Positions 7,339 through 63,545 of a stretch of 64,000 bases of DNA are shown here, in pieces; positions within the stretch are counted from its first letter, which is position 1, and the number at the start of each line of letters is the position of its first letter. Source of the stretch: Oligoflexales bacterium (GTDB lineage: Bacteria > Myxococcota_A > UBA9042 > DTJE01); assembly GCA_012840965.1 (NCBI GenBank), contig DUVQ01000098.1, positions 2,059-66,058 of the forward strand. The letters run 5' to 3'. The notes under the pieces are model-generated. The model did no database searches. It saw only the letters and a program-made list of their open reading frames with translations, and was not told the origin of the DNA. The position numbers and the translations under genes were made by a program.

Positions 7339-8292
7339 TTAAGCCCCCATTCGGGTTCGATACCAAGCTATGGTCTTTCTTAACCCCTCATCGAGGTCGA
7401 CCTTGGCCTCAAAACCCAAAAGTTCCTTAGCCTTGGAGACATCAGGTATTCTCAGCTCAACATCTGCAAACGGCCAAGGTTCGAAAACAATTTCAGATTT
7501 GGACTCAGCCAGTCGAACTATTTCTTTGGCCAGATTGTAAATCGTAACGGTGGCCCTGGGATTACCAATATTGAACGCCTCACCAACGGCTTCGGGCACA
7601 GTCAGAACCCTGCAAATTCCTTCAACTATGTCATCTATATAACACCATGAACGAATCTGAGCACCATCGTTATGAACCTTGATCTGCTCACCCCTCAACG
7701 CCTTGACAATAAAGTGATGGATAGCTCCCTCGCCCACTTGTCTTGGCCCATAAATATTAAAAGGCCTAACAGAAACAGCTGGAAAGCCGAACTGACGATG
7801 ATAAGACAATGCCAGATGCTCAGTGGCAAGCTTGCTTACAGCATATGTCCACCTAGCCTCACCCACTGCACCAAGCTTTGAGACATCCCCCTCACGAACC
7901 TTGTAGGCATACTGGCCAAACACCTCAGATGTCGAAAAATCGACAAATCGCTCTACACACCCCTCCTCGAACGCGGCCTCAACAACGTTCATGGTTCCCT
8001 TCAGGGCAACTCTCATGGTTGTAACTGGCGACTTCATGACCGTATCTACACCAGCAATTGACGCCATATGAACGATGATTTTGCACCCTTCTACAGCCGA
8101 ACGCACGGTGCCAAAATCCATGACATCACCTTGGATCAAGGTGACATTTGGATGCGAAAGCAGCTCAGTTTCCTTTAAGGCGTTTCGATGCAGATTATCG
8201 AGCAACACCACTTGATACTTATCCACCAGCCGAAGTGTCAGTGAAGACCCAATAAAGCCAGCGCCACCAGTGATCAAAATCTTGTCAGTCAT
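7339..8292 (-). CDS. NAD-dependent epimerase/dehydratase (SDR family; UDP-sugar dehydratase/decarboxylase-like)
   Basis: Rossmann motif ILITGGAGFIGS at the N-terminus. 317 aa. Confidence 0.8.
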   Translation of the reverse strand: MTDKILITGGAGFIGSSLTLRLVDKYQVVLLDNLHRNALKETELLSHPNVTLIQGDVMDFGTVRSAVEGCKIIVHMASIAGVDTVMKSPVTTMRVALKGTMNVVEAAFEEGCVERFVDFSTSEVFGQYAYKVREGDVSKLGAVGEARWTYAVSKLATEHLALSYHRQFGFPAVSVRPFNIYGPRQVGEGAIHHFIVKALRGEQIKVHNDGAQIRSWCYIDDIVEGICRVLTVPEAVGEAFNIGNPRATVTIYNLAKEIVRLAESKSEIVFEPWPFADVELRIPDVSKAKELLGFEAKVDLDEGLRKTIAWYRTRMGA

Positions 8293-9312: not shown

Positions 9313-11157
9313 ATGTACGCAAATCAGTCAAAGAAGATGGCCAAACTTGGCACCCTGTTTTTCGTCACCTTTGCGGCCTTTGTGGCGGCCCTTTTTCCAT
9401 CCCTCGATCCCGACACTTATTTTCATCTTGCAGCAGGCAGGGATATAGCAACAACTGGAGTTATCCCAAGAACTGAAACCTTATGTTTTTGGGCAGCTGG
9501 TGAGCCCTTTATTAATCATGAATGGCTGTTTGACCTTTTGGCATGGTGGTCTTTTGATTTTGGTGGTGAGATTGGAGTCTCCCTTTTCAGGGCCACCCTG
9601 TCTGGGCTTTTATTCCTATTGGCGGCTTTGGTCGCCTTTCGCCTTGAGGCTGCTTGGTGGGCCACGTTGGCCACTTCCATCGCGTTTTTGCCCATTTTCA
9701 GGCCGTCTTTGGAGCTTCGCCCCCATCTTGCTGGATACACACTCGCGGCAGCGGCTCTTTTGGTGTTCCTGAATAAAAACGTCACCATCTGGCGAACCAT
9801 CGCCCTGATTATCATTGCAGTGGTCTGGGCTAACTCTCATGGTTCTTTCCCCTTGGTAGTACCGCTGATTATTTTGTGGGCCTTAATGCCAGTTACAAAG
9901 CAAGACCACGCCCTGGAACGACCAAAGCGCCTAGGAGTGGCTGCCTTAGCTGGCCTTTCAACGCTAATCAACCCCTGGGGCTTTGGCCTAGTTAAGACCG
10001 TTGTTTATCACACAGACAGCAAAATAACGGCCATGGTTCCTGAATGGTGGCCTATCTCTTGGGGTGAGCAGCCAGCTTTTGATGCGCTTTTATTGGCCTT
10101 GATCGCAGGGACGTTACTGTCGTTTCTCCCCAAAAAAAACAGGCTGCGTTTTGCTGAAATTGGCTTGGTTTTGCTGTTTTTAATCCCGGCTGTGAAATCT
10201 CAGAAATTCGTCTTGGGTCTAGCTGTTGGATTGGCACCTGTTATGGCGGCTAATCTTTCAAGGGTGCTCAACTTCCGGTTGACAACAAAACTATCCATCA
10301 GTGCTGCATCCGTCCTGATTGCTGGATTGGCAGGCTCGGTAATCCATCCGTCCACTAGTTTTGGGTTTGGTTTTGATAAAACCGAGGCACCCTTTGATGC
10401 AATCGACTGGGCCAGCAAGGCAAATGTAGGCGGCAAGTGGTTTAACCCCTTTGACCGAGGTGGCTTTTTGGCTTGGTCAGGGCAAAAACCAATCTTGGAT
10501 GGCCGTGCATATGTCCACGGTACAGATCGCATCCTGAACTTTGTGTCTGCTTTGGCTAATCCCTTAAATTTCCAACAGATGCACCGAGTTTTGGGTTTTG
10601 ATGCAGTGTTAGTCGATTATCATGACACGGCGTTTCCTGTGTTAACCGAGTACCTACTGCAATCTAATGACTGGGCCTTGGTCTGGCTTGACAATCGTTT
10701 CGCAATATTTGTCCCGGCAAGTAAAGCCCAAAGTCTGGACTTACCCACCTTCAAGGTATTACTTCCACAGGCCAACCCTTTGTATCTGTTTGATTTGCCA
10801 GACTCGGACGTCGCTAAAGCCAGGGCCGAAACAGATGGACCGTCACAATCCACGCTAGGCAAACCATTGTCCTTACTGGTCAAAGGATTACTAGATCTAA
10901 AAGAAGCAGGCCTAGGCTGGGCACCAATAGATGCAATCAAGTCCCCAACAAAGCCAGAGTTTTGCAAAACAGCTGCGGACAGTTTGAAACAACTAGTATC
11001 ACTAGAGCCAGACACTCCAATGTATCGCTATTTCTGGGCTATCTCCCTAGTTTGCAACGACCAATGTGAAGAGGCATTACACCAAGTCAACAAAATTCAA
11101 GACTTCCCAGATGCCAAAGGCCTAAAAATCTTAATTGAAAGGGGAGAGTGCCCCTGA
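9313..11157 (+). CDS. large polytopic membrane protein, possibly a GT-C-fold glycosyltransferase (ArnT/PMT-like; inference)
   Basis: More than 12 predicted TM helices and about 610 aa. Divergent from the aminotransferase/epimerase operon. No named motif was verified. Start uncertain (9280 TTG, 9313 ATG or 9337 ATG). Confidence 0.45.
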   Translation: MYANQSKKMAKLGTLFFVTFAAFVAALFPSLDPDTYFHLAAGRDIATTGVIPRTETLCFWAAGEPFINHEWLFDLLAWWSFDFGGEIGVSLFRATLSGLLFLLAALVAFRLEAAWWATLATSIAFLPIFRPSLELRPHLAGYTLAAAALLVFLNKNVTIWRTIALIIIAVVWANSHGSFPLVVPLIILWALMPVTKQDHALERPKRLGVAALAGLSTLINPWGFGLVKTVVYHTDSKITAMVPEWWPISWGEQPAFDALLLALIAGTLLSFLPKKNRLRFAEIGLVLLFLIPAVKSQKFVLGLAVGLAPVMAANLSRVLNFRLTTKLSISAASVLIAGLAGSVIHPSTSFGFGFDKTEAPFDAIDWASKANVGGKWFNPFDRGGFLAWSGQKPILDGRAYVHGTDRILNFVSALANPLNFQQMHRVLGFDAVLVDYHDTAFPVLTEYLLQSNDWALVWLDNRFAIFVPASKAQSLDLPTFKVLLPQANPLYLFDLPDSDVAKARAETDGPSQSTLGKPLSLLVKGLLDLKEAGLGWAPIDAIKSPTKPEFCKTAADSLKQLVSLEPDTPMYRYFWAISLVCNDQCEEALHQVNKIQDFPDAKGLKILIERGECP

Positions 11158-11300
11158 TCCTGTCCCTGGCCCTAGTGACCTGATCCTGTCCCTGCCCCTG
11201 TCCCTGCCCCTAGCCCTGTCCCTGTCCCTGATCCTGTCCCCGCCCCTGCCCCCTTCTCCCTTCACCCTTCACCCTTCCTCCCACCCCCGCCCCCGCCCCC
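11158..11300 (+). repeat. C-rich (CCCTGY)n low-complexity repeat tract (copy R1 of the dispersed family)
   Basis: cctgtccctgcccctgtccctgcccctagccctgtccctgtccctgatcctgtccccgcccctgcccc... lies directly after the stop of the upstream gene. Confidence 0.9.
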
Positions 11301-12121: not shown

Positions 12122-13927
12122 ATGCCTGAACAAAAAGGTAAATTGACACAGTTAATAAATGATTATCTGGCCACAGCCCAACAAAACGAGTCAGATGCCT
12201 ACAAATGGCTTGTTGAAAATGGAATGCAAGGCTGTTTGGCCAAGTACCTGGCAAACGCCGGGGCACCTGAAATTCAAACTTTTTTGAACGATGTCTTTAG
12301 AATTGACCGCGAGTGGCTAAAGCGGCATCGAGAAGCCAAGTCAGCTTTGACCAAACCAGCGATTACTTCGTTGTCAGTACTTCCCCCCTTTCTTTTAGAT
12401 AAAGAAAACAAGGAGCGACTGGAACTAATAGGCAAAACTTCGCTGAAAAATGGCCGTTGGGGAGTTTTAATCTTTTCAGGTGGCGCCGCAACCAGATTTT
12501 TTTCAGATAGCGCACTTAAAGACAAGGTTAAAAGCTTAAAAGGGCCAATTCCTAAAGGGCTTTTTCCACTAACACCTGTCCTGGGGTTGCCTTTTTTAGA
12601 CTTTTTTGCCGCCCAGATGCTGGAAATTGGAATTGAGACAGGTACCTTGCCGCCTCTTATCCTGATGGTCAGCAGTGAAACAGCCGACGCGATTAAGGCG
12701 TGGAGGCCGCACTATCCAGCTGAGGCGTTAATCATCATAGAGCAGGCCCGCCATCCGCGTCTTGATGAGGACGGAGATTTGGTAGCACACCCAGATGGCA
12801 GGCTGGTGCAAACTGGAGACGGTCATGGAGGGGTGTTCAAGGCGCTGCAGCAGCCGCGAGCAGGAGGGGATGGAGGCAGGGACAGGGACAGGGGTGCTGA
12901 AGGCAAGTCCGTGTGGGGCGGGGAGCCTCAGCCAGGAGACAGTGCTATGGACAAGCTTTTGTCGATGGGTGTTGATTCCATAGTCATGCACAACGTCGAT
13001 AATGCCGGGGCAAACGCGCTTGAGGCCGGTCGCTTGGGATGGTTCATTGATTCGAACGTTTCCTTTGGAATGACTGCAGTTGAAAGAACCAAGGTTGCAG
13101 AAAAAGTTGGAATTATCGCAGTTGATGACAGCGCGGATCGTGTGGACGTCGTTGAGTATTCAGTATGCCCTCCAGAACTGGCCACAGCAGCCGATTCTCA
13201 AGGACAACCAATCTTCAAATTGGCCCACATCAACACCAATCTTGTAAAGCTTGATTCAATAAATGCTGACCTGCCACCCACCTTGTACAGTGGAAAAAAG
13301 GTATCAGTCGGCGGCCAGACCATAGTCACAAGTTCCCTAGAAATGCTCAATCAGCATCTGGCAAAGACCCTACCAAAACAAAAGGTTGGCGTAATTTTAA
13401 TGAAGCGTGACGAAAGCTTTATGCCAACCAAGAGCATTTCCGGAGAAGATTCGTTAGAAAGCACTCAAGCAACTATGGCCCGCTTGTGGAAAGAGCGCCT
13501 AATCCAAGCCGGCGGCCAGGCAAGCCACGACGCCATGATCGAGCTTTACCCATCTTTTACACCGCCTGGTCTTTGGGCGAAAGGCTGGCAAATTGGTGAT
13601 GGAGCAACGTTAGCATTGGCCATAAAGCATGGAACTGAAAACCATTTTTTAGGAACAAACCTAGTTTTGGAGTCAGGCGCCAAACTAAGCATCACGGCGC
13701 AAAACCCTTATGGAGAAATAAGATACGCTGCCAAAACCAGAAAAATATCAGCCGACCCCAAAACCGCTGCGAAAGTAAGCCTAGGTAACAACGTCAAATT
13801 ACTTTGCAATGTGTCCATAAAGGTGCACATAAATGGAAGCGGAGTTTTGGTAATAAAAGACGGCCATATCTTCGATCAATCACAGACTTTGATCATAAAT
13901 TCGGGCGAAGTTTACCAGATAGGTTAA
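12122..13927 (+). CDS. UDP-sugar pyrophosphorylase-family (UDPGP/UAP1-like) nucleotidyltransferase with a C-terminal beta-helix-like tail
   Basis: ...VLIFSGGAATRF..., ...LILMVSSETADAIKAW... and ...RLVQTGDGHGGVFKAL... align with the UAP1/UGP G-loop, TSE and GNGG motifs. It carries an in-frame G-rich repeat insertion (12863-12897). Confidence 0.6.
   Translation: MPEQKGKLTQLINDYLATAQQNESDAYKWLVENGMQGCLAKYLANAGAPEIQTFLNDVFRIDREWLKRHREAKSALTKPAITSLSVLPPFLLDKENKERLELIGKTSLKNGRWGVLIFSGGAATRFFSDSALKDKVKSLKGPIPKGLFPLTPVLGLPFLDFFAAQMLEIGIETGTLPPLILMVSSETADAIKAWRPHYPAEALIIIEQARHPRLDEDGDLVAHPDGRLVQTGDGHGGVFKALQQPRAGGDGGRDRDRGAEGKSVWGGEPQPGDSAMDKLLSMGVDSIVMHNVDNAGANALEAGRLGWFIDSNVSFGMTAVERTKVAEKVGIIAVDDSADRVDVVEYSVCPPELATAADSQGQPIFKLAHINTNLVKLDSINADLPPTLYSGKKVSVGGQTIVTSSLEMLNQHLAKTLPKQKVGVILMKRDESFMPTKSISGEDSLESTQATMARLWKERLIQAGGQASHDAMIELYPSFTPPGLWAKGWQIGDGATLALAIKHGTENHFLGTNLVLESGAKLSITAQNPYGEIRYAAKTRKISADPKTAAKVSLGNNVKLLCNVSIKVHINGSGVLVIKDGHIFDQSQTLIINSGEVYQIG
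12863..12897 (+). repeat. G-rich repeat copy embedded in-frame in a CDS (ggaggcagggacagggacaggggtgctg)
   Basis: Same family as the intergenic copies. It encodes the low-complexity GGDGGRDRDRGAEG between conserved UDPGP blocks. Confidence 0.8.
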
Positions 13928-21388: not shown

Positions 21389-21459
<71 letters not shown>

Positions 21460-21517
21460 ACAGCCACAAAGCCCGAAGATCTTGCTATAGCTGGCCCAAC
21501 AAGTCAAGTCTAAAAAC

Positions 21518-21574
21518 AGGAGCAGGGACAGGGGCAGGGAGCGGGGAGCAGGGACAGGAGGCAGGGACAGGGCA
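21518..21574 (+). repeat. G-rich repeat copy R3
   Basis: ggagcagggacaggggcagggagcggggagcagggacaggaggcagggacaggg, between tRNA-Cys and the nucleotidyltransferase gene. Confidence 0.85.
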
Positions 21575-22870: not shown

Positions 22871-22898
22871 GGCGGGAGGCGGGGACAGGGGCAGGGCC
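22871..22898 (+). repeat. G-rich repeat copy R4
   Basis: ggcgggaggcggggacaggggcagggcc, directly after the stop of the partner gene. Confidence 0.8.
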
Positions 22899-42312: not shown

Positions 42313-43530
42313 TCAGACTCTGTTTAGAAGGTGCCCCATTCTGGTTTTTTTAGTTGCAAGATAGCGCAGAGCTTTGGGGCCTCGTGCTGGGATTTCAATA
42401 GGCACTCGCTCAACTATTTCAAGGCCGTACCCGGCTAGTCCAATGATTTTTTGAGGGTTGTTGGTCAGCAAGCGCATCTTTTTGATGCCCAGGTGCGCCA
42501 GGATCTGGGCGCCAATCCCATAGTCTCGAAGATCGGGGGCAAAACCAAGGTGAGTGTTGGCGTCGACTGTATCGAGACCTTGGTCTTGGAGTTCATAGGC
42601 TTTGAGTTTGTTCAGGATGCCGATGCCGCGCCCTTCTTGTCGAAGATAGAGCAGGACTCCGCCTTCTTTGGAAATCTGTTCAAGGGCGGCTTTCAGTTGT
42701 GGGCCGCAATCGCATCGTCTGGAGTGAAAGACGTCACCAGTTAGGCATTCAGAGTGGACCCTTACAAGGATAGGGGTGTTGCTGGAAATATCGCCTTTTA
42801 CCATGGCGATGTGGGCGGCTTGTGCGACTGAATCTTCGTAGACAATGCTTTTAAATTCGCCGTGTTCTGTTTGAACTGTGGTTGTACCTACTGGGCGTAC
42901 CAAAAGTTCTTTTCGCATCCTGAAGGCGATTAAGTCTTGGACTGTGATTATTGGGATGCTTTTTTCCTGGCCGAGGGCAAGTAGGCTGTCCAAGGTCGCT
43001 GCATCGCCGTTGTCGTCAAGTACCTGACAGATTACTGCTGCGGGTTTTAGTCCTGCGAGTCTGGCGAGGTCGACGGCTGCTTCGGTTTGGCCGGCTCTTT
43101 TTAGGACGCCGCCTGGTACGGACCGCAGGGGGAAGACGTGGCCTGGGACTACAAAGTCGTCTAGGACGGCGTCGTCGTGAAGTAGTAGTTCGACAGTTTT
43201 GGCTCTGTCAAAGGCGGATATGCCGGTGGTGGTGACAGCGCGGCCGTCGACTGAGACTGTGAAGGCGGCTTGGAAGTGGGCGGTGTTTCTTTGGACCATC
43301 ATTGGGAGGCCAATTCGATCAATCATGTCGTGGCTCATGGCGACGCAGACTAGGCCGCTGGCGATTTTGGTTATTTCATTGATAATCTCAGCGGTTGCCA
43401 TTTCTGCGGCGACGATTATATCGCCTTCATTTTCGCGACTTTCGTCGTCGACGACGATGACCATGCGGCCCATTCGTAGGGCTTCAATTGCAGATTCAAT
43501 TGACGAGGTAATTCTTACAGCATCAACCAT
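42313..43530 (-). CDS. ribBA: bifunctional 3,4-dihydroxy-2-butanone-4-phosphate synthase / GTP cyclohydrolase II
   Basis: ...[22 protein letters not shown]... (RibB) plus a C-terminal GTP cyclohydrolase II domain. Start at the internal Met MVDAVRIT.... Confidence 0.85.
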
Positions 43531-43606
43531 GAACGAACTCCAAAGCAGGTCCCAAACAAGGCGCGAGATGATACCACGCACCATCGATCACGACAAAACT
43601 GGTCTT

Positions 43607-43646
43607 GCCCCTGGTTTTGGCCCTGGCCCTGTCCCCTGCCCCTGCT
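43607..43646 (+). repeat. C-rich repeat copy R6 (G-rich on the ribBA-sense strand)
   Basis: cccctggttttggccctggccctgtcccctgcccctgc, inside the ribBA 5' leader. Confidence 0.8.
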
Positions 43647-43649
43647 ACA

Positions 43650-43980
43650 GATCCTGCTAATTTGTCTGTTATGACTCCTGATTGTTTGTTCTTTTTTGCG
43701 TTTGATCTCTTCGTTACAGTTGTAAAACACGTCCCGGGGGCATCCTTCCGGACCCAAAATCTCCCGTAGCCACCCCGACTGTCTCTTAGTGACATCGTCC
43801 GGGCGAAATACACGATTGCTAATGTGTACGTTTATCCTTTTGGCCCGGACGGAGTGCTGCGCACTCTTCAAGTCACCTAAGAGACGTCGGGTCCCGGCAA
43901 CTCCCGATAGCGCCCTCCAGGATTGCCCCCGGACCATGTTGCAGGGTGCCCTCTCGACCTTCTTTTAGCTCCAAATCCCG
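43650..43980 (-). other. structured non-coding region upstream of ribBA (candidate cis-regulatory RNA; family unassigned)
   Basis: Long-range inverted repeat cccgggggcatcc (43731-43744) / ggattgcccccgg (43921-43934), plus internal helices GTCCGGGC...GCCCGGAC (43797-43850) and GAGTGC-tgc-GCACTC (43850-43866). Not coding in any frame. Strand assumed from ribBA. Confidence 0.3.
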
Positions 43981-43984
43981 CTAA

Positions 43985-44040
43985 ACAGTACGATCATTTC
44001 CCTGCCTCCTGTTCCCTGCCTTCTCTGTCCCTGCCAAGAC
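43985..44040 (+). repeat. C-rich repeat copy R7
   Basis: ccctgcctcctgttccctgccttctctgtccctgcc. Confidence 0.75.
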
Positions 44041-44146
44041 TAGGCGGGTACGGTTTGGCGGTCGGTAATGATTGAGTTCAGGTTCGACATGTGCTATCAC
44101 CAAGCATCGGGTTTGGAATGGACCGTTGATTCTGTAGGGGTCGTTA

Positions 44147-45352
44147 ATGCGGGTCTTGCGATATTTGGCTGTACTTTCGCTAGTTTTCGCTATTATCGCG
44201 ATGATTGGTTGTGACGATTCTGCCCATCGAGCCCATGTTTTGGGGGGAGTGCCGCTGCCTTCTGATGATGAGCCGGATATCGTGTCAAAGCCTGATGAGG
44301 GCGGCGATACTGATGAGGGTTTTGATGTCGATTCATTGTGCGTGCCGGAGTGTGGGGACAGAGTCTGTGGCCCTGATCCCGTTTGCGGCAAGTCGTGTGG
44401 CACCTGTGATGCTTCCACAACTTGCAATTCTCAAGGCCAGTGTGAGTGTGTGAGAGACTGTACCGGTCGCGTTTGTGGTCCGGACCCTGTTTGTGGCGAG
44501 CCGTGTGGGGCTTGTGATGAAAACTGGGTCTGTGTTCTTAGTGGCAAGTGTATAGCCCCAACAGCCGACTGCAGCAACGGGTGGTGTTTGATTCCGTCAG
44601 GCACCTTTAAGATGGGTTCTTTAGGAGATGATCCTTACCGTGAACTTGATGAGGGGCCTGTTCATTTGGTCACGATTTCCCGCTCTTTTTACATGGCGCA
44701 GACGGAAGTCACTCAGGGCCAGTGGAAGTCCTTGATAGGCAACAATCCTTCTGAACATAGTGCCTGTGGGGATAACTGCCCTCTTGAGAACGTTAATTGG
44801 TATGAAGCCGTTCATTATGCAAATGCGCTTTCTGAGAGGGAAGGTTTTGAAACCTGTTACACGTTGAATGGTTGCAGTGGTACTGTCGGTTCTGGGGAAA
44901 GTAAGAACAATCTCTATCAATGTACGGTCACTTTTAAGGGACTTGGTTGTGCAGGTTATCGTTTACCAACCGAGGCCGAGTGGGAATATGCAGCCCGTGC
45001 TGGTACTTCTGGGCCTAGGTATGGCGAAATTGATGCCACAACTTGGTATTGGAACAACAGTTCAAACACTAGTCATCCGGTGGGTGGAAAGGCGGCAAAT
45101 TCCTGGGGCTTATATGATGTGCTGGGCAATGTATTTGAGTGGGTTTACGACTTTTACAGCGAGGACTACTACAGCACTTGTTCATCCAACTGCACAGATC
45201 CAACCGGACCTGCGACAGGCTTTAACCGGGTAAATCGTAGTGGCGGTTGGGGCAGCGACGAAAGCCGTACACGCGTGGTTTTTCGCAACAACTACTCGCC
45301 TGACGAACGCCGAGTCTATTTGGGTTTTCGTTTGGTGAGGTCCGCGCCCTAG
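44147..45352 (+). CDS. lipoprotein with two Cys-rich CxxCxxRxCGxDxxCGxxCGxC modules and a C-terminal FGE-sulfatase (SUMF1-like) domain
   Basis: Lipobox AMIGC. Modules CVPECGDRVCGPDPVCGKSCGTCD... and CVRDCTGRVCGPDPVCGEPCGACD.... FGE motifs ...HLVTISRSFYMAQTEVTQGQW..., YRLPTEAEWEYAARAG, ...GNVFEWVYD.... Confidence 0.75.
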   Translation: MRVLRYLAVLSLVFAIIAMIGCDDSAHRAHVLGGVPLPSDDEPDIVSKPDEGGDTDEGFDVDSLCVPECGDRVCGPDPVCGKSCGTCDASTTCNSQGQCECVRDCTGRVCGPDPVCGEPCGACDENWVCVLSGKCIAPTADCSNGWCLIPSGTFKMGSLGDDPYRELDEGPVHLVTISRSFYMAQTEVTQGQWKSLIGNNPSEHSACGDNCPLENVNWYEAVHYANALSEREGFETCYTLNGCSGTVGSGESKNNLYQCTVTFKGLGCAGYRLPTEAEWEYAARAGTSGPRYGEIDATTWYWNNSSNTSHPVGGKAANSWGLYDVLGNVFEWVYDFYSEDYYSTCSSNCTDPTGPATGFNRVNRSGGWGSDESRTRVVFRNNYSPDERRVYLGFRLVRSAP

Positions 45353-45393
45353 TCTCCTGCCTCCTCTCCCCGTCCCTGCCCTCGCCCTCGCGC
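45352..45393 (+). repeat. C-rich repeat copy R8
   Basis: gtctcctgcctcctctccccgtccctgccctcgccctcgcgccgcc, directly after the stop. Confidence 0.75.
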
Positions 45394-45467
45394 CGCCAAG
45401 CCTCTTGCCATTTCACACCTTGTGCTGTAAAATCGCGCTCCCTTTTGGCCTAGGATATAGAGGGGAT

Positions 45468-61103: not shown

Positions 61104-61205
61104 TTCTTTTTTGGCGTAAAAACCCTTAAAAAAGGGATAATCCCCATCTTGAAACAGTGTGAATCCTTTGATACTCTGCGTCGGAAACGTCTGATTGGGG
61201 GAATC

Positions 61206-63545
61206 ATGGACTGGGCTGTTCGACTTCCTGAGATTGGAGACAAGATTGGCGGTAGGTTTCGCATAGTTGCGATTAAAGGCTCCGGGCCGGTAGGCATGGT
61301 GTTCAAGGCCTTTGATTTGGCTTTGGACTTGCCTGTGGCAGTGAAAGTTTTTAATCCAGAGTTGTTTAGTTCCGCATTTAGGGAGCTGAATCTGCTGCGG
61401 CTGTACAGGGCCAGGACCCTACAAGACAGCAATCTGGTCAGAATTTTTGAGGTCATGGAAGAAGACGGCCTTCATTTTGTGACCAGCCAGTTAGTTGAGG
61501 GGATGTCCCTTAGGGCAGTGCTCGATCTGAGGGACGAAAGTGGTGAGCGATTTCCAGCGCCCAAGATTCGGTCGCTTGCAGAGTGGCTGATAGACGCTGT
61601 TGTCCCTATCCATAAACAGGGGATTATTCACGGGAATCTGAAGCCGGAGAACCTGTTCGTTTTACCGGACAAACTAATGGTTTCGGACCCTCACTACTTG
61701 GTCCTTAACATGCTTGTTGAGGGCCAGGAGATTCCAGCTACAGACTTTTATCGTGGTCCAGAGCAACTTACTGAACCGCGAATGGAATTGAAGCAGACTG
61801 ATGTTTACGCCGTCGCTTTAATCATAGGTGAGATTCTTGCCATTAATCCAGTAAGGGCAGGCGTTCCTCTTTCTGAACAAATTCCAAGGCTTACCAAGCA
61901 TCTTGATGATGTCTTTGTCAAGGCTACCCAAGACGACCCATTTGATAGGTACGATTCATTACAAAGCTTTGCCAAGGATTTAAGCAGTGCCTTTGCAAAG
62001 GTAGATGTTGACGGACTGTGGGTCCGCAGGATGCACGAGACAGGCTCGTTCAAGGCGTTAAGGATCGTCCAAGCTCCAGATGGTCAGCCAATTCCTCTGG
62101 TAGTGGAACCAACTGCTGTCACAGCCCCCGAGCCTGCCCCTGCTCCCGAGCCCGAGCCTGCCCCAGAGCCCGCCCCAGAGCCAGAGCCTGCCCCTGCCCC
62201 GGAGCCTGCACCTGTCTCTGCCCCCGCCCCTGATCCTGTCCCTGTCCCTGACCCCGAGCCAGAGCCCAACCCTGCTGACGAACTAGAGGAAGAGGGCATC
62301 GAATTCGATACAAATCGCATTGATGACTCGGACTTAGAGGGAATCGAGGTTGTCTTTAGCGCACCTGCAATGGATGATGAGGAAGATCTTGCTGTTGAGG
62401 AGACAGTAGAGCCCGTGGCACCGGAGCCCACCAAAGCCGGAAGGGGTAGAAAAGGGAAAAAGGGTAGACAGGCCGCTAGGGAGGCCGCTAAAGAGGCGGC
62501 AAGGGCCGCTCAAAAGGAGGAAGAACAGCCCCCACCTGCACCTGAACCACCTCCGGTTGTAGTTGCAGATGCCCCACCAGATGTGCCAGATCTGCTGTTG
62601 ACTACCCCACAGCGCAGACCCACTGGCCCCTTACCAAAACCACCTACCAGGCCTATAGATACCGGCACTGTAACTGTAATCAAAAAAGACGAGCCAAAAA
62701 GCGGAATTATGCGTTTTCTTTGGCTTATAGCGTTGGTGGTAGTGTTGGGTGGTGCTGCAACATTTTGGTACATGGGTAAATCTGATCCAGTGGAGGAGCC
62801 AGTCATTGCTGCTGTTGATGACCCAGCTCCTGCCCCGGCTCCAGCTCCTGAGCCTGCTGCAGCTCCGGCCCCAGCTCCGGCCCCAGCCCCTGAGCCCGCT
62901 GCAGCCCCGGCCCCGGCTCCGGCCCCAGTCCCTGAGCCTGCTCCTGCCCCCGAGCCTGTCCCTGCCCCTGAGCCCGCTGCTGCCCCCGAGCCTGAGCCTG
63001 TCCCTGCCCCAGAACCAGCCCCCGCTCCCGAGCCAGCCCCAGCCCCCCAAGGCGCCCTTTTAGCAGACAACCTAGTCTGCCCCGCGGGCATGGCGCTAAT
63101 CGTGCTGGATGAAACAGCCACTGTTGACTCCAAGGCCAAACCAAGCTCAGTAGGCTTTTGTATCGACACCCACGAATTTCCTGGAGCTGGTCAAAAACCA
63201 AGGGGCGGCGCGTCTAGGGCCACCGCAACCAGCTTGTGCAAAAAGGCTGGGAAGGCACTGTGCAGTAGCGCCCAATGGTTAAAAGCCTGCGAAACCGGCA
63301 CACCAGAGGCATCGAAGTGTAACGTGACAGGCGGCGTACAACCCGCAGGTTCCTACGCTGAATGCGTAACATCCAACGGTGTGTACGACATGATCGGAAA
63401 TGTTGGGGAATGGACCTCTGACAACTTCATCAGAGGCGGTGACACCAACGTTGGTGGGATTGGATCTTGTTCCTACAAAACTAAGCGTTTTAGCCCGAAA
63501 TCCACAGACGGATTCAGATGTTGTGCCAATCCTACAACTCGCTGA
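61206..63545 (+). CDS. Ser/Thr-kinase-like protein (predicted pseudokinase) with TM, Pro/Ala/Glu repeats and a C-terminal FGE-sulfatase-like domain
   Basis: G-loop IKGSGPVGMVFKA and VAVKV lysine are present, but the catalytic loop reads HGNLKPEN (not HRDLKPEN) and the DFG position reads SDP. A TM segment (LIALVVVLGGAATFWYM) separates two PAPEPEP tracts. C-terminus ...YDMIGNVGEWTSD.... Confidence 0.7.
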   Translation: MDWAVRLPEIGDKIGGRFRIVAIKGSGPVGMVFKAFDLALDLPVAVKVFNPELFSSAFRELNLLRLYRARTLQDSNLVRIFEVMEEDGLHFVTSQLVEGMSLRAVLDLRDESGERFPAPKIRSLAEWLIDAVVPIHKQGIIHGNLKPENLFVLPDKLMVSDPHYLVLNMLVEGQEIPATDFYRGPEQLTEPRMELKQTDVYAVALIIGEILAINPVRAGVPLSEQIPRLTKHLDDVFVKATQDDPFDRYDSLQSFAKDLSSAFAKVDVDGLWVRRMHETGSFKALRIVQAPDGQPIPLVVEPTAVTAPEPAPAPEPEPAPEPAPEPEPAPAPEPAPVSAPAPDPVPVPDPEPEPNPADELEEEGIEFDTNRIDDSDLEGIEVVFSAPAMDDEEDLAVEETVEPVAPEPTKAGRGRKGKKGRQAAREAAKEAARAAQKEEEQPPPAPEPPPVVVADAPPDVPDLLLTTPQRRPTGPLPKPPTRPIDTGTVTVIKKDEPKSGIMRFLWLIALVVVLGGAATFWYMGKSDPVEEPVIAAVDDPAPAPAPAPEPAAAPAPAPAPAPEPAAAPAPAPAPVPEPAPAPEPVPAPEPAAAPEPEPVPAPEPAPAPEPAPAPQGALLADNLVCPAGMALIVLDETATVDSKAKPSSVGFCIDTHEFPGAGQKPRGGASRATATSLCKKAGKALCSSAQWLKACETGTPEASKCNVTGGVQPAGSYAECVTSNGVYDMIGNVGEWTSDNFIRGGDTNVGGIGSCSYKTKRFSPKSTDGFRCCANPTTR

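Follow-up and report, generated by a model that had tools for sequence, protein, structure and literature searches.

Among the repeated sequences described in bacteria, REPs measure 20–40 nt and REPINs about 100 nt. Prokaryotic MITEs and further structured interspersed repeats, i.e. ERIC/RU-1, BOX, Correia/NEMIS, RUP and QMITEs, have been reviewed (PMC10969869), and G-rich, quadruplex-forming simple repeats of the type GGGNATC are described in Xanthomonas and Nostoc (PMC4692102).

The segment upstream of ribBA in the window, i.e. the whole 64,000-nt stretch of DNA that was analysed, is a member of a dispersed repeat family in one uncultured Myxococcota lineage. The core of the element comprises 346 bp (window 43995 → 43650), and its sense strand is the minus strand of the window. 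Together with its two C-rich arrays (G-rich on the sense strand), which have the same orientation, this non-coding copy occupies 43606–44035, and it is the single copy within the 64-kb window. In the direction of the sense strand, the locus and its surroundings are composed as follows:

45355–45378, minus strand: unoccupied G-rich array downstream of an FGE-sulfatase gene; the related strain L199 has a type-B copy there
43996–44035, minus strand: 5'-side G-rich array GGCAGGGACAGAGAAGGCAGGGAACAGGAGGCAGGGAAAT, a degenerate (GGGRCA)n that ends in the junction motif GGGAAAT (GGRAGAY in other copies)
43974–43995, minus strand: 5' terminal quasi-palindrome GATCGTACTGTTTAGCGGGATT, family consensus GATYGTGCTG-WTYTR-GCAGGAT, pi 0.25
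43940–43973, minus strand: conserved 5' leader of the element TTGGAGCTAAAAGAAGGTCGAGAGGGCACCCTGCAAC, with many invariant columns, pi 0.07
43727–43939, minus strand: rod-like fold of about 213 nt, with a 17-bp basal helix, two internal loops, a 19-bp helix and a three-way tip, pi 0.03–0.04
43916–43918 and 43747–43749, minus strand: symmetric purine internal loop GGA/GGA of the rod
43902–43905 and 43762–43765, minus strand: symmetric purine internal loop GGGA/GGGA of the rod
43882–43885, minus strand: insertion site of the long forms, GACGTC|TCTTAG, without insert in the window copy
43852–43866, minus strand: side hairpin GAGTGC-GCA-GCACTC (GGCCGC-GCA-GCGGCC in most copies)
43796–43851, minus strand: apical arm, an invariant 9-bp stem CGTCCGGGC/GCCCGGACG around the variable tip 43805–43842
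43672–43726, minus strand: U-tract (GUUUUA) directly 3' of the rod, followed by an A-rich unpaired tail ACAACTGTAACGAAGAGATCAAACGCAAAAAAGAACAAACAATCAGGAG, pi 0.10
43650–43671, minus strand: 3' terminal segment TCATAACAGACAAATTAGCAGGATC, degenerate with respect to the family consensus GAACRTGCTAATTAGCASGATC, which is a quasi-palindrome; pi 0.23
43606–43649, minus strand: 3'-side G-rich array TGTAGCAGGGGCAGGGGACAGGGCCAGGGCCAAAACCAGGGGCAAG, which contains a canonical G4 motif at 43621–43642 (a match to the consensus (G3+N1-7)x4, with predicted folding)
43568–43596, minus strand: TTGTCG-17-TATCAT with a TG extension, the promoter-like site of ribBA, which lies downstream of the element and outside it
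42313–43530, minus strand: ribBA, 405 aa, DHBP synthase plus GTP cyclohydrolase II, the neighbouring gene outside the element

The element has many traits of MITEs (PMC10969869). It is small and without coding capacity, it occurs in many dispersed intergenic copies with a strong predicted hairpin, its sizes are modular with insertions at fixed internal points, it breaks assemblies, and it shows presence/absence polymorphism between strains, which loss by array recombination could also produce. On the other hand, a length of 346–550 bp lies at the large end of the MITE range, and the sequence is G+C-rich rather than AT-rich. There is no clear target-site duplication, and conservation is lowest in the 22-bp quasi-palindromic ends, with a nearly invariant rod in the interior. 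The element always sits within G-rich hexamer arrays that share its polarity, and no related insertion sequence is known. REP/REPIN-RAYT systems and IS200/IS605-derived elements are similar in other respects, namely intergenic hairpins with a fold that is kept on one strand, tandem clusters, conserved mismatches inside hairpins, and the lack of target duplications and of classical terminal inverted repeats. Unlike REPs and REPINs, however, the unit measures 346 bp and the hairpin alone 213 nt with a branched tip, which is too large for that class. Elements of the IS200/IS605 type would be expected to have subterminal hairpins at both ends that are recognised on one strand; here, quasi-palindromes at both ends and folding of one strand are observed, but a TnpA gene and conserved 4–5-nt cleavage or target motifs were not identified, and neither a Y1/HUH transposase gene nor a RAYT gene flanked by the repeats was seen in the sampled DNA. 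The arrays, in turn, resemble the GGGNATC repeats (PMC4692102), as they consist of tandem 6–7-nt units with a G3-4 tract, are scattered over non-coding DNA, vary in unit number and contain four-tract runs that match the G4 consensus, as predicted here from sequence. They differ in their hexamer unit GGGRCA and in that they flank a structured element with fixed polarity.

The original prediction had described the region as structured, and all sequence features it listed are present, with coordinates within 1–2 nt. These are a long-range inverted repeat (cccgggggcatcc at 43733–43745, ggattgcccccgg at 43920–43932), for which a repeat finder gave arms at 43726–43742 and 43924–43940, a nested helix GTCCGGGC/GCCCGGAC (43797–43804/43844–43851), a TACAC/GTGTA helix (43810–43814/43825–43829), the hairpin GAGTGC-tgc-GCACTC (43852–43866), the hairpin GGGUCC-GGAA-GGAUGCCC on the ribBA-sense strand (~43755–43738), and the flanking C-rich repeats in the same orientation (43606–43649, 43996–44035). 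The fold is indeed beyond chance: the minus strand of 43700–43970 has an MFE of -115.9 kcal/mol (z = -4.93), which none of 200 shuffles equalled. The plus strand of the same segment reaches z = -4.42. Both the consensus fold and the MFE fold consist of one long rod with a small three-way tip.

An alignment of 68 copies revealed how strongly this rod is constrained. Its 71 pairs are paired in 99.7% of all cells, a value matched by none of 500 shuffles. As G·U occurs in 211 of the rod cells and A·C or C·A in only 7, a preference that is based on about 4–5 independent polymorphic sites, it is the minus (ribBA-sense) strand that folds. Compensatory changes are found at three pairs; in the side hairpin, compensatory double changes affect two pairs (alignment columns 145–157 and 147–155). 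Diversity (pi) amounts to 0.025–0.06 in the rod versus 0.23–0.25 at the ends, i.e. the rod is about 8-fold less diverse, with the conservation near the tip being partly inflated because the copies were retrieved by an exact 25-base pattern. Unpaired rod positions and the symmetric purine loops are conserved as well (pi 0.06). The stretch GGUCCGGAAGGA resembles the tip of SRP RNA helix 8. We rejected an SRP-like reading of it, since there is no match to an SRP model and its bases lie in the rod of the conserved fold.

A 22-bp quasi-palindrome lies at either end of the element, so that each end matches the other both directly and in inverted form (about 16 of 22 positions, counted by eye); these ends represent its most variable part. 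Palindromes of the 5' terminal type are nearly confined to the ends of elements, with 88 associated with elements versus three spurious occurrences elsewhere in about 1 Mb of lineage DNA. Beyond the ends, the tandem G-rich hexamers (GGGRCA)n share the polarity of the element on both sides. On the sense strand, the upstream 80 nt contain at least three G3 tracts in 63 of 67 copies and are C-rich in none of the 67; on the downstream side, at least three G3 tracts are present in 46 of 67 copies. In 51 of 67 copies, one or both of the sides have a sequence that fits the canonical G4 motif. The orientation of the core relative to the arrays is the same in 66 cases and reversed in one. Since solo arrays without element occur within the window and G-rich tracts are also found upstream of ribBA in relatives, the arrays pre-exist independently of the element.

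To collect the family we used a 25-base pattern from the tip, CGTCCGGGC-N15-45-GCCCGGACGATGTCAC, as a probe. It matched at least 118 metagenome stretches, with several matches per contig and many at contig ends. Besides that of the window, 67 distinct full-length cores are among the matches listed, and they are 84–92% identical to the window core. Clustering of the flanks of 76 copies with full flanks gave 50–62 distinct sites. All copies are intergenic and lie beside unrelated housekeeping genes, which are divergent in 18 cases, convergent in 14, tandem in the same orientation in 7 and tandem in the opposite orientation in 14. The element exists in a short form of about 235 bp, as the 346-bp core and in a long form of about 535–550 bp, and tandem triplets occur too. 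Long members have an extra arm of 185–203 nt, a self-contained helix closed by a 16-bp stem, inserted at GACGTC|TCTTAG. The 123 matches listed comprise about 100 tips of type A (38 nt), to which the window copy belongs with its 38 nt, and 18 of type B (31 nt, with a CCGCC...GGCGG stem). A search for more distant members through translated spurious ORFs in a set of 5.8 billion proteins yielded 34 clusters, all from similarly diverged copies, and the two most divergent ones (L211, L212) are full-length copies of the ordinary kind, situated on contigs of low coverage. No match was obtained by BLASTN against plasmids and phages or by an exact-pattern scan of viral contigs, and the literature search brought up no account of the hexamer arrays or of elements of this kind.

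From these data we consider it probable, at roughly 0.62, that the family represents a lineage-specific, non-autonomous, MITE/REPIN-like interspersed element placed in (GGGRCA)n arrays. Such a mobile element would spread into G-rich hexamer arrays that are already present, and the mobilising machinery would be encoded elsewhere and recognise the folded single strand of sense polarity. By analogy, its nearest counterparts would be the hairpin-recognising HUH (Y1) transposases that act on IS200/IS605 ends and REP/REPIN sequences. The family is unusual in three respects, namely an interior fold that is conserved much more strongly than the ends, pairing that is kept on one strand only, and a strict coupling to G-rich hexamer arrays with the polarity of the element; taken together, these suggest that a folded single strand is recognised. 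Among ORFs close to the copies (at least 150 aa long within 2.5 kb, or 70–200 aa within 1.5 kb), clustering brought up no more than orthologues of the same locus and paralogues of housekeeping genes (sigma54 activators, FGE-sulfatases, ValRS). No transposase, RAYT or recombinase is recurrent within 2.5 kb of the copies (about 1 Mb sampled), and an autonomous insertion sequence that shares the ends of the element was likewise not found in that range. A target-site duplication is seen neither in the flanks of 67 copies nor at a filled/empty pair, and the hexamer arrays could hide a short one. The canonical MITE hallmarks are therefore unproven, as no target-site duplication is visible and the ends are mutual direct and inverted repeats. 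The filled/empty pair stems from L199, whose flanks are 98% identical to the window and which carries a copy in the array at about window 45355–45370, 1.4 kb (array 45355–45378) from the element at the ribBA locus; the window, L002 and L004 are empty there. This single pair could equally be explained by deletion through recombination between the flanking direct arrays.

The location next to ribBA had led to the expectation of an FMN riboswitch, and the original prediction offered a divergent riboswitch, an unrelated leader structure and an inserted structured element as alternatives, of which only the inserted element has held. A divergent FMN riboswitch, or some other leader that is specific to ribBA and controls riboflavin synthesis, would be in keeping with the strong fold and with the location 5' of ribBA on its sense strand. 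Position upstream of a riboflavin gene is, however, the only likeness to the FMN riboswitch (RF00050). Covariance searches with RF00050 and all other Rfam families gave no match, neither at the gathering score in the whole window nor at E<=10 in 43450–44200 on both strands, and for a long family member nothing beyond far-sub-threshold miRNA-hairpin noise appeared. Instead of a six-helix junction with conserved junction nucleotides, the element forms a rod, and its family also occupies unrelated sites, about 50 or more of them, some between convergent genes and some antisense to neighbours. Element and riboswitch are both missing at ribBA of the relatives: those with 73–75% RibBA identity have ribBA spacers of 190–235 nt without the element and without an FMN riboswitch, the element is also absent upstream of ribBA in related genera, and the short ribBA spacers of L205, L207 and L208 contain no element and gave no match in an Rfam search. 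A RibBA search of genome contigs returned, among the matches listed, homologues of 53–58% identity from other phyla, which served as a negative control for nhmmer. TTGTCG-17-TATCAT is the sole sigma70-like site found in 43450–44250. Its -10 is conserved in the 82%-identity relative L209, in which TGGTATCAT is likewise found about 50 nt upstream of ribBA, and L205, L207 and L208 have TACAAT or GATAT at the equivalent place. Because the promoter-like site is downstream of the element, the latter probably lies outside the ribBA transcript. The description as a ribBA leader thus holds with regard to its place upstream of the gene and probably not with regard to the transcript; likewise, the predicted G4 motif is canonical, but it is probably not part of the ribBA 5' UTR. 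The riboswitch or leader reading is effectively refuted, and the position at ribBA is incidental. At most, the element may block read-through from upstream by means of its strong predicted hairpin with U residues after it. A false lead is thereby removed, as there is no cryptic riboflavin riboswitch here and ribBA of this lineage appears to be without one altogether. The region had also been regarded as devoid of coding potential. Strictly, a 140-aa ORF (43937 → 43515) crosses it, is open across the rod and was called in the assemblies L002–L004, and 34 protein clusters contain it as a gene-caller prediction. Yet it is not conserved among the copies: read from the same ATG, the frame stays open for 26–96 codons from one copy to another, the two tip types differ by 7 nt, a 1-nt indel is private to the window copy, no cluster contains a Pfam domain, and the ORF overlaps the ribBA start. 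A small protein gene is therefore effectively refuted as well, and we attach virtually no weight to it.

Three further scenarios would account for the dispersal without a MITE/REPIN-like element. The terminal quasi-palindromes, 22-bp ends with arms of 8–9 bp around a palindromic AATT/TAATTA centre, could be the recombination sites of a cassette that is moved by a site-specific recombinase, with excision, integration and, by symmetry, occasional inversion. The ends do resemble recombinase core sites and repeat each other in direct as well as inverted form, a target-site duplication is not seen, and in L098 the core is flipped exactly between the two palindromes. A symmetric site, however, predicts random orientation, whereas orientation to the arrays is 66 to 1. 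The putative sites also vary more than any other part of the element, neither about 1.07 Mb of lineage DNA nor the window contains a palindrome that is unoccupied (attB-like site), and no recombinase gene lies near the copies; all of this makes the cassette improbable. We consider a SINE-like origin even more remote, although the order of structured head, A-rich tail and simple repeats and the sense-strand-specific folding agree with it. In this case, a reverse transcriptase encoded elsewhere would have copied head and tail, and the G-rich repeats would have arisen at integration; but the arrays are on both sides and are also present without elements, 5'-truncated copies with constant 3' ends do not occur, the size variants being internal insertions and deletions, and neither a reverse transcriptase gene near the copies nor a target-site duplication was found.

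A multi-copy family of independently transcribed structured ncRNA genes, in which the host and not a selfish element would maintain the rod, is unlikely but deserves more weight. Its product would be an RNA of about 270 nt made up of leader, rod and U-tract, and recombination between hexamer arrays would have spread the copies. The strand-specific fold that tolerates G·U and not A·C, the compensatory changes and fully compensated tip variants, the conserved symmetric purine loops and unpaired rod positions (pi 0.06 versus 0.25 at the ends), the extra arms that are self-contained helices like expansion segments, and UUUU after the basal helix on the sense strand only are all expected of such an RNA. 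It is important to note that a nearly constant interior rod with least conserved ends, the part that a transposase usually requires, is the reverse of typical MITEs, and that a functional RNA fits this pattern as well. On the other hand, neither strand of the window copy has a sigma70-like promoter inside the element, there is no match to an Rfam family, and the family was found only in a single narrow lineage, in which no copy falls below 84% identity. For a bacterial ncRNA gene, about 50 or more near-identical copies would be unusual, and the presence/absence polymorphism, the tandem arrays, the inversion and the internal deletions are what selfish repeats typically show. We mention, as a similarly tentative proposal, that the nearly invariant rod, with its two symmetric purine loops, its pairing on one strand and its plug-in arms, could be the working part of something novel. 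It might belong to a new kind of mobile or domesticated element, a structured RNA or a single-stranded DNA that would direct itself into G-rich hexamer microsatellites through a partner enzyme, or else to an ncRNA family that is maintained by the host between quadruplex-prone arrays; either would be without a counterpart in Rfam or among described bacterial repeats.

The family offers a tractable case for the co-evolution of microsatellites and structured repeats in bacteria. Rearrangements at the copies are also seen between strains. At the ribBA locus, L001 has tip B instead of the tip A of the window, with otherwise identical flanks. In L098, the core is inverted relative to its arrays, and the outer halves and the arrays are unchanged. 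L125 and the window copy have only one flank in common. Finally, the element breaks and mis-joins metagenome assemblies and gives rise to spurious 'hypothetical proteins' (34 clusters), which is relevant to the annotation of MAGs.

The structured region upstream of ribBA lies in a spacer of 616 bp between two divergent genes:

42313-43530, minus strand, ribBA (405 aa; DHBP synthase and GTP cyclohydrolase II)
44147-45352, plus strand, formylglycine-generating-enzyme (FGE-sulfatase) gene

All helices listed in the original prediction are present in this spacer, at positions within 1-2 nt, and the C-rich same-orientation repeats said to flank the structured region were found at 43606-43649 and 43996-44035, confirming it as it had been seen. 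The minus (sense) strand of 43700-43970 folds with an MFE of -115.9 kcal/mol (z = -4.93; 0 of 200 shuffles as good) and the plus strand with z = -4.42, i.e. both strands are much more stable than their shuffled counterparts. The structure is a single long rod (43727-43939) that carries a small three-way tip.

It is close to certain that this structure is a copy of an interspersed structured repeat specific to one uncultured Myxococcota lineage. The spacer of L001, a contig of the same organism, is identical to that of the window except for the apical hairpin, where TACAC...GTGTA is replaced by CCGCC...GGCGG, fully compensated and 7 nt shorter. The end of contig L003 represents a second, partial copy (93.5% identical) joined to a different G-rich repeat, and two same-organism contigs (L005, L006) start within the element, a pattern typical of repeats. 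When metagenomes were scanned for the invariant apical stem enclosing an open gap, CGTCCGGGC-N15-45-GCCCGGACGATGTCAC, at least 118 stretches matched, several on one contig and many at contig ends. Among the matches listed, about 100 have tip type A (38 nt) and 18 have type B (31 nt). Using BLAST and MAFFT we delimited a core of 346 nt (window 43995 to 43650, minus strand), copies of which are 84-92% identical. Another 67 distinct cores of full length were collected; aligned with the window copy, they have a mean column identity of 89%. Flank clustering of the 76 copies with full flanks gave 50-62 distinct insertion sites; an inserted structured element, the last of three alternatives initially considered, is thus the correct one. 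The window itself contains only one copy.

An FMN riboswitch had been expected in the ribBA leader. Rfam, however, returned nothing for 43450-44200, even at E ≤ 10; its only match in the whole window is a tRNA. This tRNA gene (21389-21459, minus strand, 68.2 bits) is located about 60 nt from a G-rich hexamer array at 21517-21546. All 67 copies are intergenic and adjoin unrelated housekeeping genes. The neighbouring genes are divergent in 18 cases, convergent in 14, tandem co-oriented in 7 and tandem opposed in 14, which is not the distribution of a 5′-leader element. The riboswitch and leader readings were rejected. In relatives with 73-75% RibBA identity, a SurA-like gene is located directly upstream of ribBA, and the 190-235 nt between them contain no FGE gene, no element (nhmmer) and no Rfam match.

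The sole sigma70-like site in 43450-44250 (TTGTCG-17-TATCAT with a TG extension, 43596 to 43568) is positioned between the element and the ribBA start codon. In L209, the 82% relative, TGGTATCAT recurs in the corresponding position, and others have TACAAT or GATAT. Since this consensus match lies downstream of the element and its -10 is conserved in a relative, the element is probably upstream of the ribBA transcription start, and so is the G4 motif at 43621-43642, which had been assigned to the mRNA 5′ UTR. Some sources give RibBA as 423 aa with a start at 43584. This start is probably wrong: the 405-aa form (start 43530) is the one consistent with NCBI models, and the longer version (extra part 43531-43584, minus strand) would include the predicted promoter.

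The statement that the region lacks coding potential holds in part: a 140-aa ORF exists and is annotated by some gene callers, but its frame is not conserved, comprising 26-96 codons depending on the copy. A search with its translation yielded 34 clusters of domain-less 'hypothetical proteins' in the protein collection, all from similarly diverged copies; the two most divergent clusters are ordinary full-length elements. A protein reading was rejected on account of the unconserved frame and the domain-less clusters. Contigs often begin or end in the element (L005 1-282, L006 1-222, L003 1-205, and many of L087-L204). The element is a systematic assembly breakpoint in metagenomes and a source of spurious protein calls. 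Plasmids, phages and viral contigs gave no element match, and literature searches no description of the family.

On the sense strand, the general layout of the family has a (GGGRCA)n array and the junction motif GGRAGAY ahead of a quasi-palindrome of 22 nt (GATYGTGCTG-WTYTR-GCAGGAT), which is followed by a conserved leader and the rod. Beyond the rod come a UUUU tract, an A-rich tail and a second quasi-palindrome (GAACRTGCTAATTAGCASGATC), then often TGTAGCAGG and another (GGGRCA)n array. At least three G3 tracts occur within 80 nt on this strand upstream of 63 and downstream of 46 of the 67 copies; C-rich flanks occur upstream of none and downstream of one. Long members carry an extra arm of 185-203 nt at GACGTC|TCTTAG; this arm, found inside elements only, has a perfect 16-bp closing stem. 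In short members the whole part distal to the GGGA/GGGA loop is missing. In L116 (8608-9655) a long and two short copies are arranged head-to-tail, about 26 nt apart. As the two short copies and the spacers are nearly identical, this triplet points to a recent tandem duplication.

The RNAalifold consensus has 71 pairs. In the alignment, 99.7% of cells are standard pairs, a value reached by 0 of 500 shuffles, and sliding the pair partners lowers pairing to 37-45%. Compensatory double changes were seen at three pairs; since most pairs never vary, the covariation evidence is modest. Both the tip (type A or B) and the side hairpin (GAGTGC/GCACTC or GGCCGC/GCGGCC) show clear compensated swaps. Non-Watson-Crick cells comprise 211 G·U versus 7 A·C or C·A, and the frequent polymorphisms (G-C/G·U at three pairs, A-U/G-C/G·U at a fourth) preserve pairing on the sense strand only; about 4-5 independent sites underlie this signal. 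Nucleotide diversity, calculated without the columns used in fetching copies, falls from 0.23-0.25 at both terminal segments to 0.10 for the tail and 0.07 for the leader, and is lowest in the rod arms at 0.03-0.04, with 0.025 for paired and 0.06 for unpaired positions. By these values the family has had time to diverge wherever it is unconstrained, and selection or homogenisation keeps the rod constant.

That the element is mobile now, or was recently, is well supported, not proven. In L199, whose flanks are 98% identical to the window, the G-rich array that directly follows the FGE gene (window ~45355-45370) contains a type-B copy, whereas the array is empty in the window, L002 and L004. At the filled/empty junction the element's 3′ end, ...AATTAGCAG(G), directly abuts the array; about 20 additional G-rich nt accompany the 5′ side, and no sequence is evidently duplicated. 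The difference may reflect either acquisition of the copy or its loss via recombination of the flanking direct arrays. At exactly this array, L001 (~8160-8175, window ~45355-45400) has 10 consecutive N bordered by a 60-nt duplication, which looks like a scaffolding artefact of mixed strains, some with the insertion and some lacking it. In one of the 67 copies (L098, 5585-5929) the core is inverted, exactly from one palindrome to the other, and the polarity of the outer half-sites and of the arrays is unchanged; this points to the terminal palindromes having recombined with each other. Almost all occurrences of these palindromes are at element ends (88 versus 3 spurious), with no solo att-like site in ~1.07 Mb. 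L125 (1563-1931, corresponding to window 43618-43995), from a related strain, has the FGE-side flank and the element's 5′ part in common with the window and continues into DNA other than ribBA, which indicates that a rearrangement broke within the repeat. As several other copy pairs also share one flank only, copies act as recombination points.

The element belongs among the structured interspersed bacterial repeats, a known kind; a review of prokaryotic MITEs (PMC10969869) supplied features for comparison. Its interest lies in the inverted conservation pattern, the strand-specific fold and the obligate tie to G-rich hexamer arrays. We infer a non-autonomous element that would be recognised as a folded single strand with sense polarity and would insert into hexamer arrays, moving perhaps like REP/RAYT and IS200/IS605. 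One-strand pairing, conserved internal mismatches, hairpin-like ends and the lack of a terminal-repeat or duplication signature favour this mode. No transposase-like family recurs near the copies among the large and small ORFs checked. The main rival is an ncRNA family maintained by the host, which would account for an interior more conserved than the ends, but neither a promoter nor phylogenetic breadth supports this reading.

For the non-autonomous element, the arrays look like a pre-existing landing place, since G-rich tracts occur upstream of ribBA in relatives too and the window has element-free (GGGRCA-like) hexamer arrays:

11151-11248, minus strand
12877-12894, plus strand, inside long ORF 12122-13927
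21517-21546, plus strand
22880-22897, plus strand
45361-45378, minus strand
62221-62256, minus strand, inside long ORF 61149-63545

Such solo arrays may be landing sites or leftovers of element loss. They are mostly intergenic, and the two within long ORFs would encode low-complexity linkers. In Xanthomonas and Nostoc, G-rich 7-mer repeats of G4 potential have been described as abundant (PMC4692102). The FGE-sulfatase gene, located between the SurA-like gene and ribBA, is missing at the syntenic locus of L205 and L207 (related genera). It is an insertion in this lineage, with G-rich arrays or element sites on both sides. FGE-sulfatase paralogues adjoin other element copies as well.
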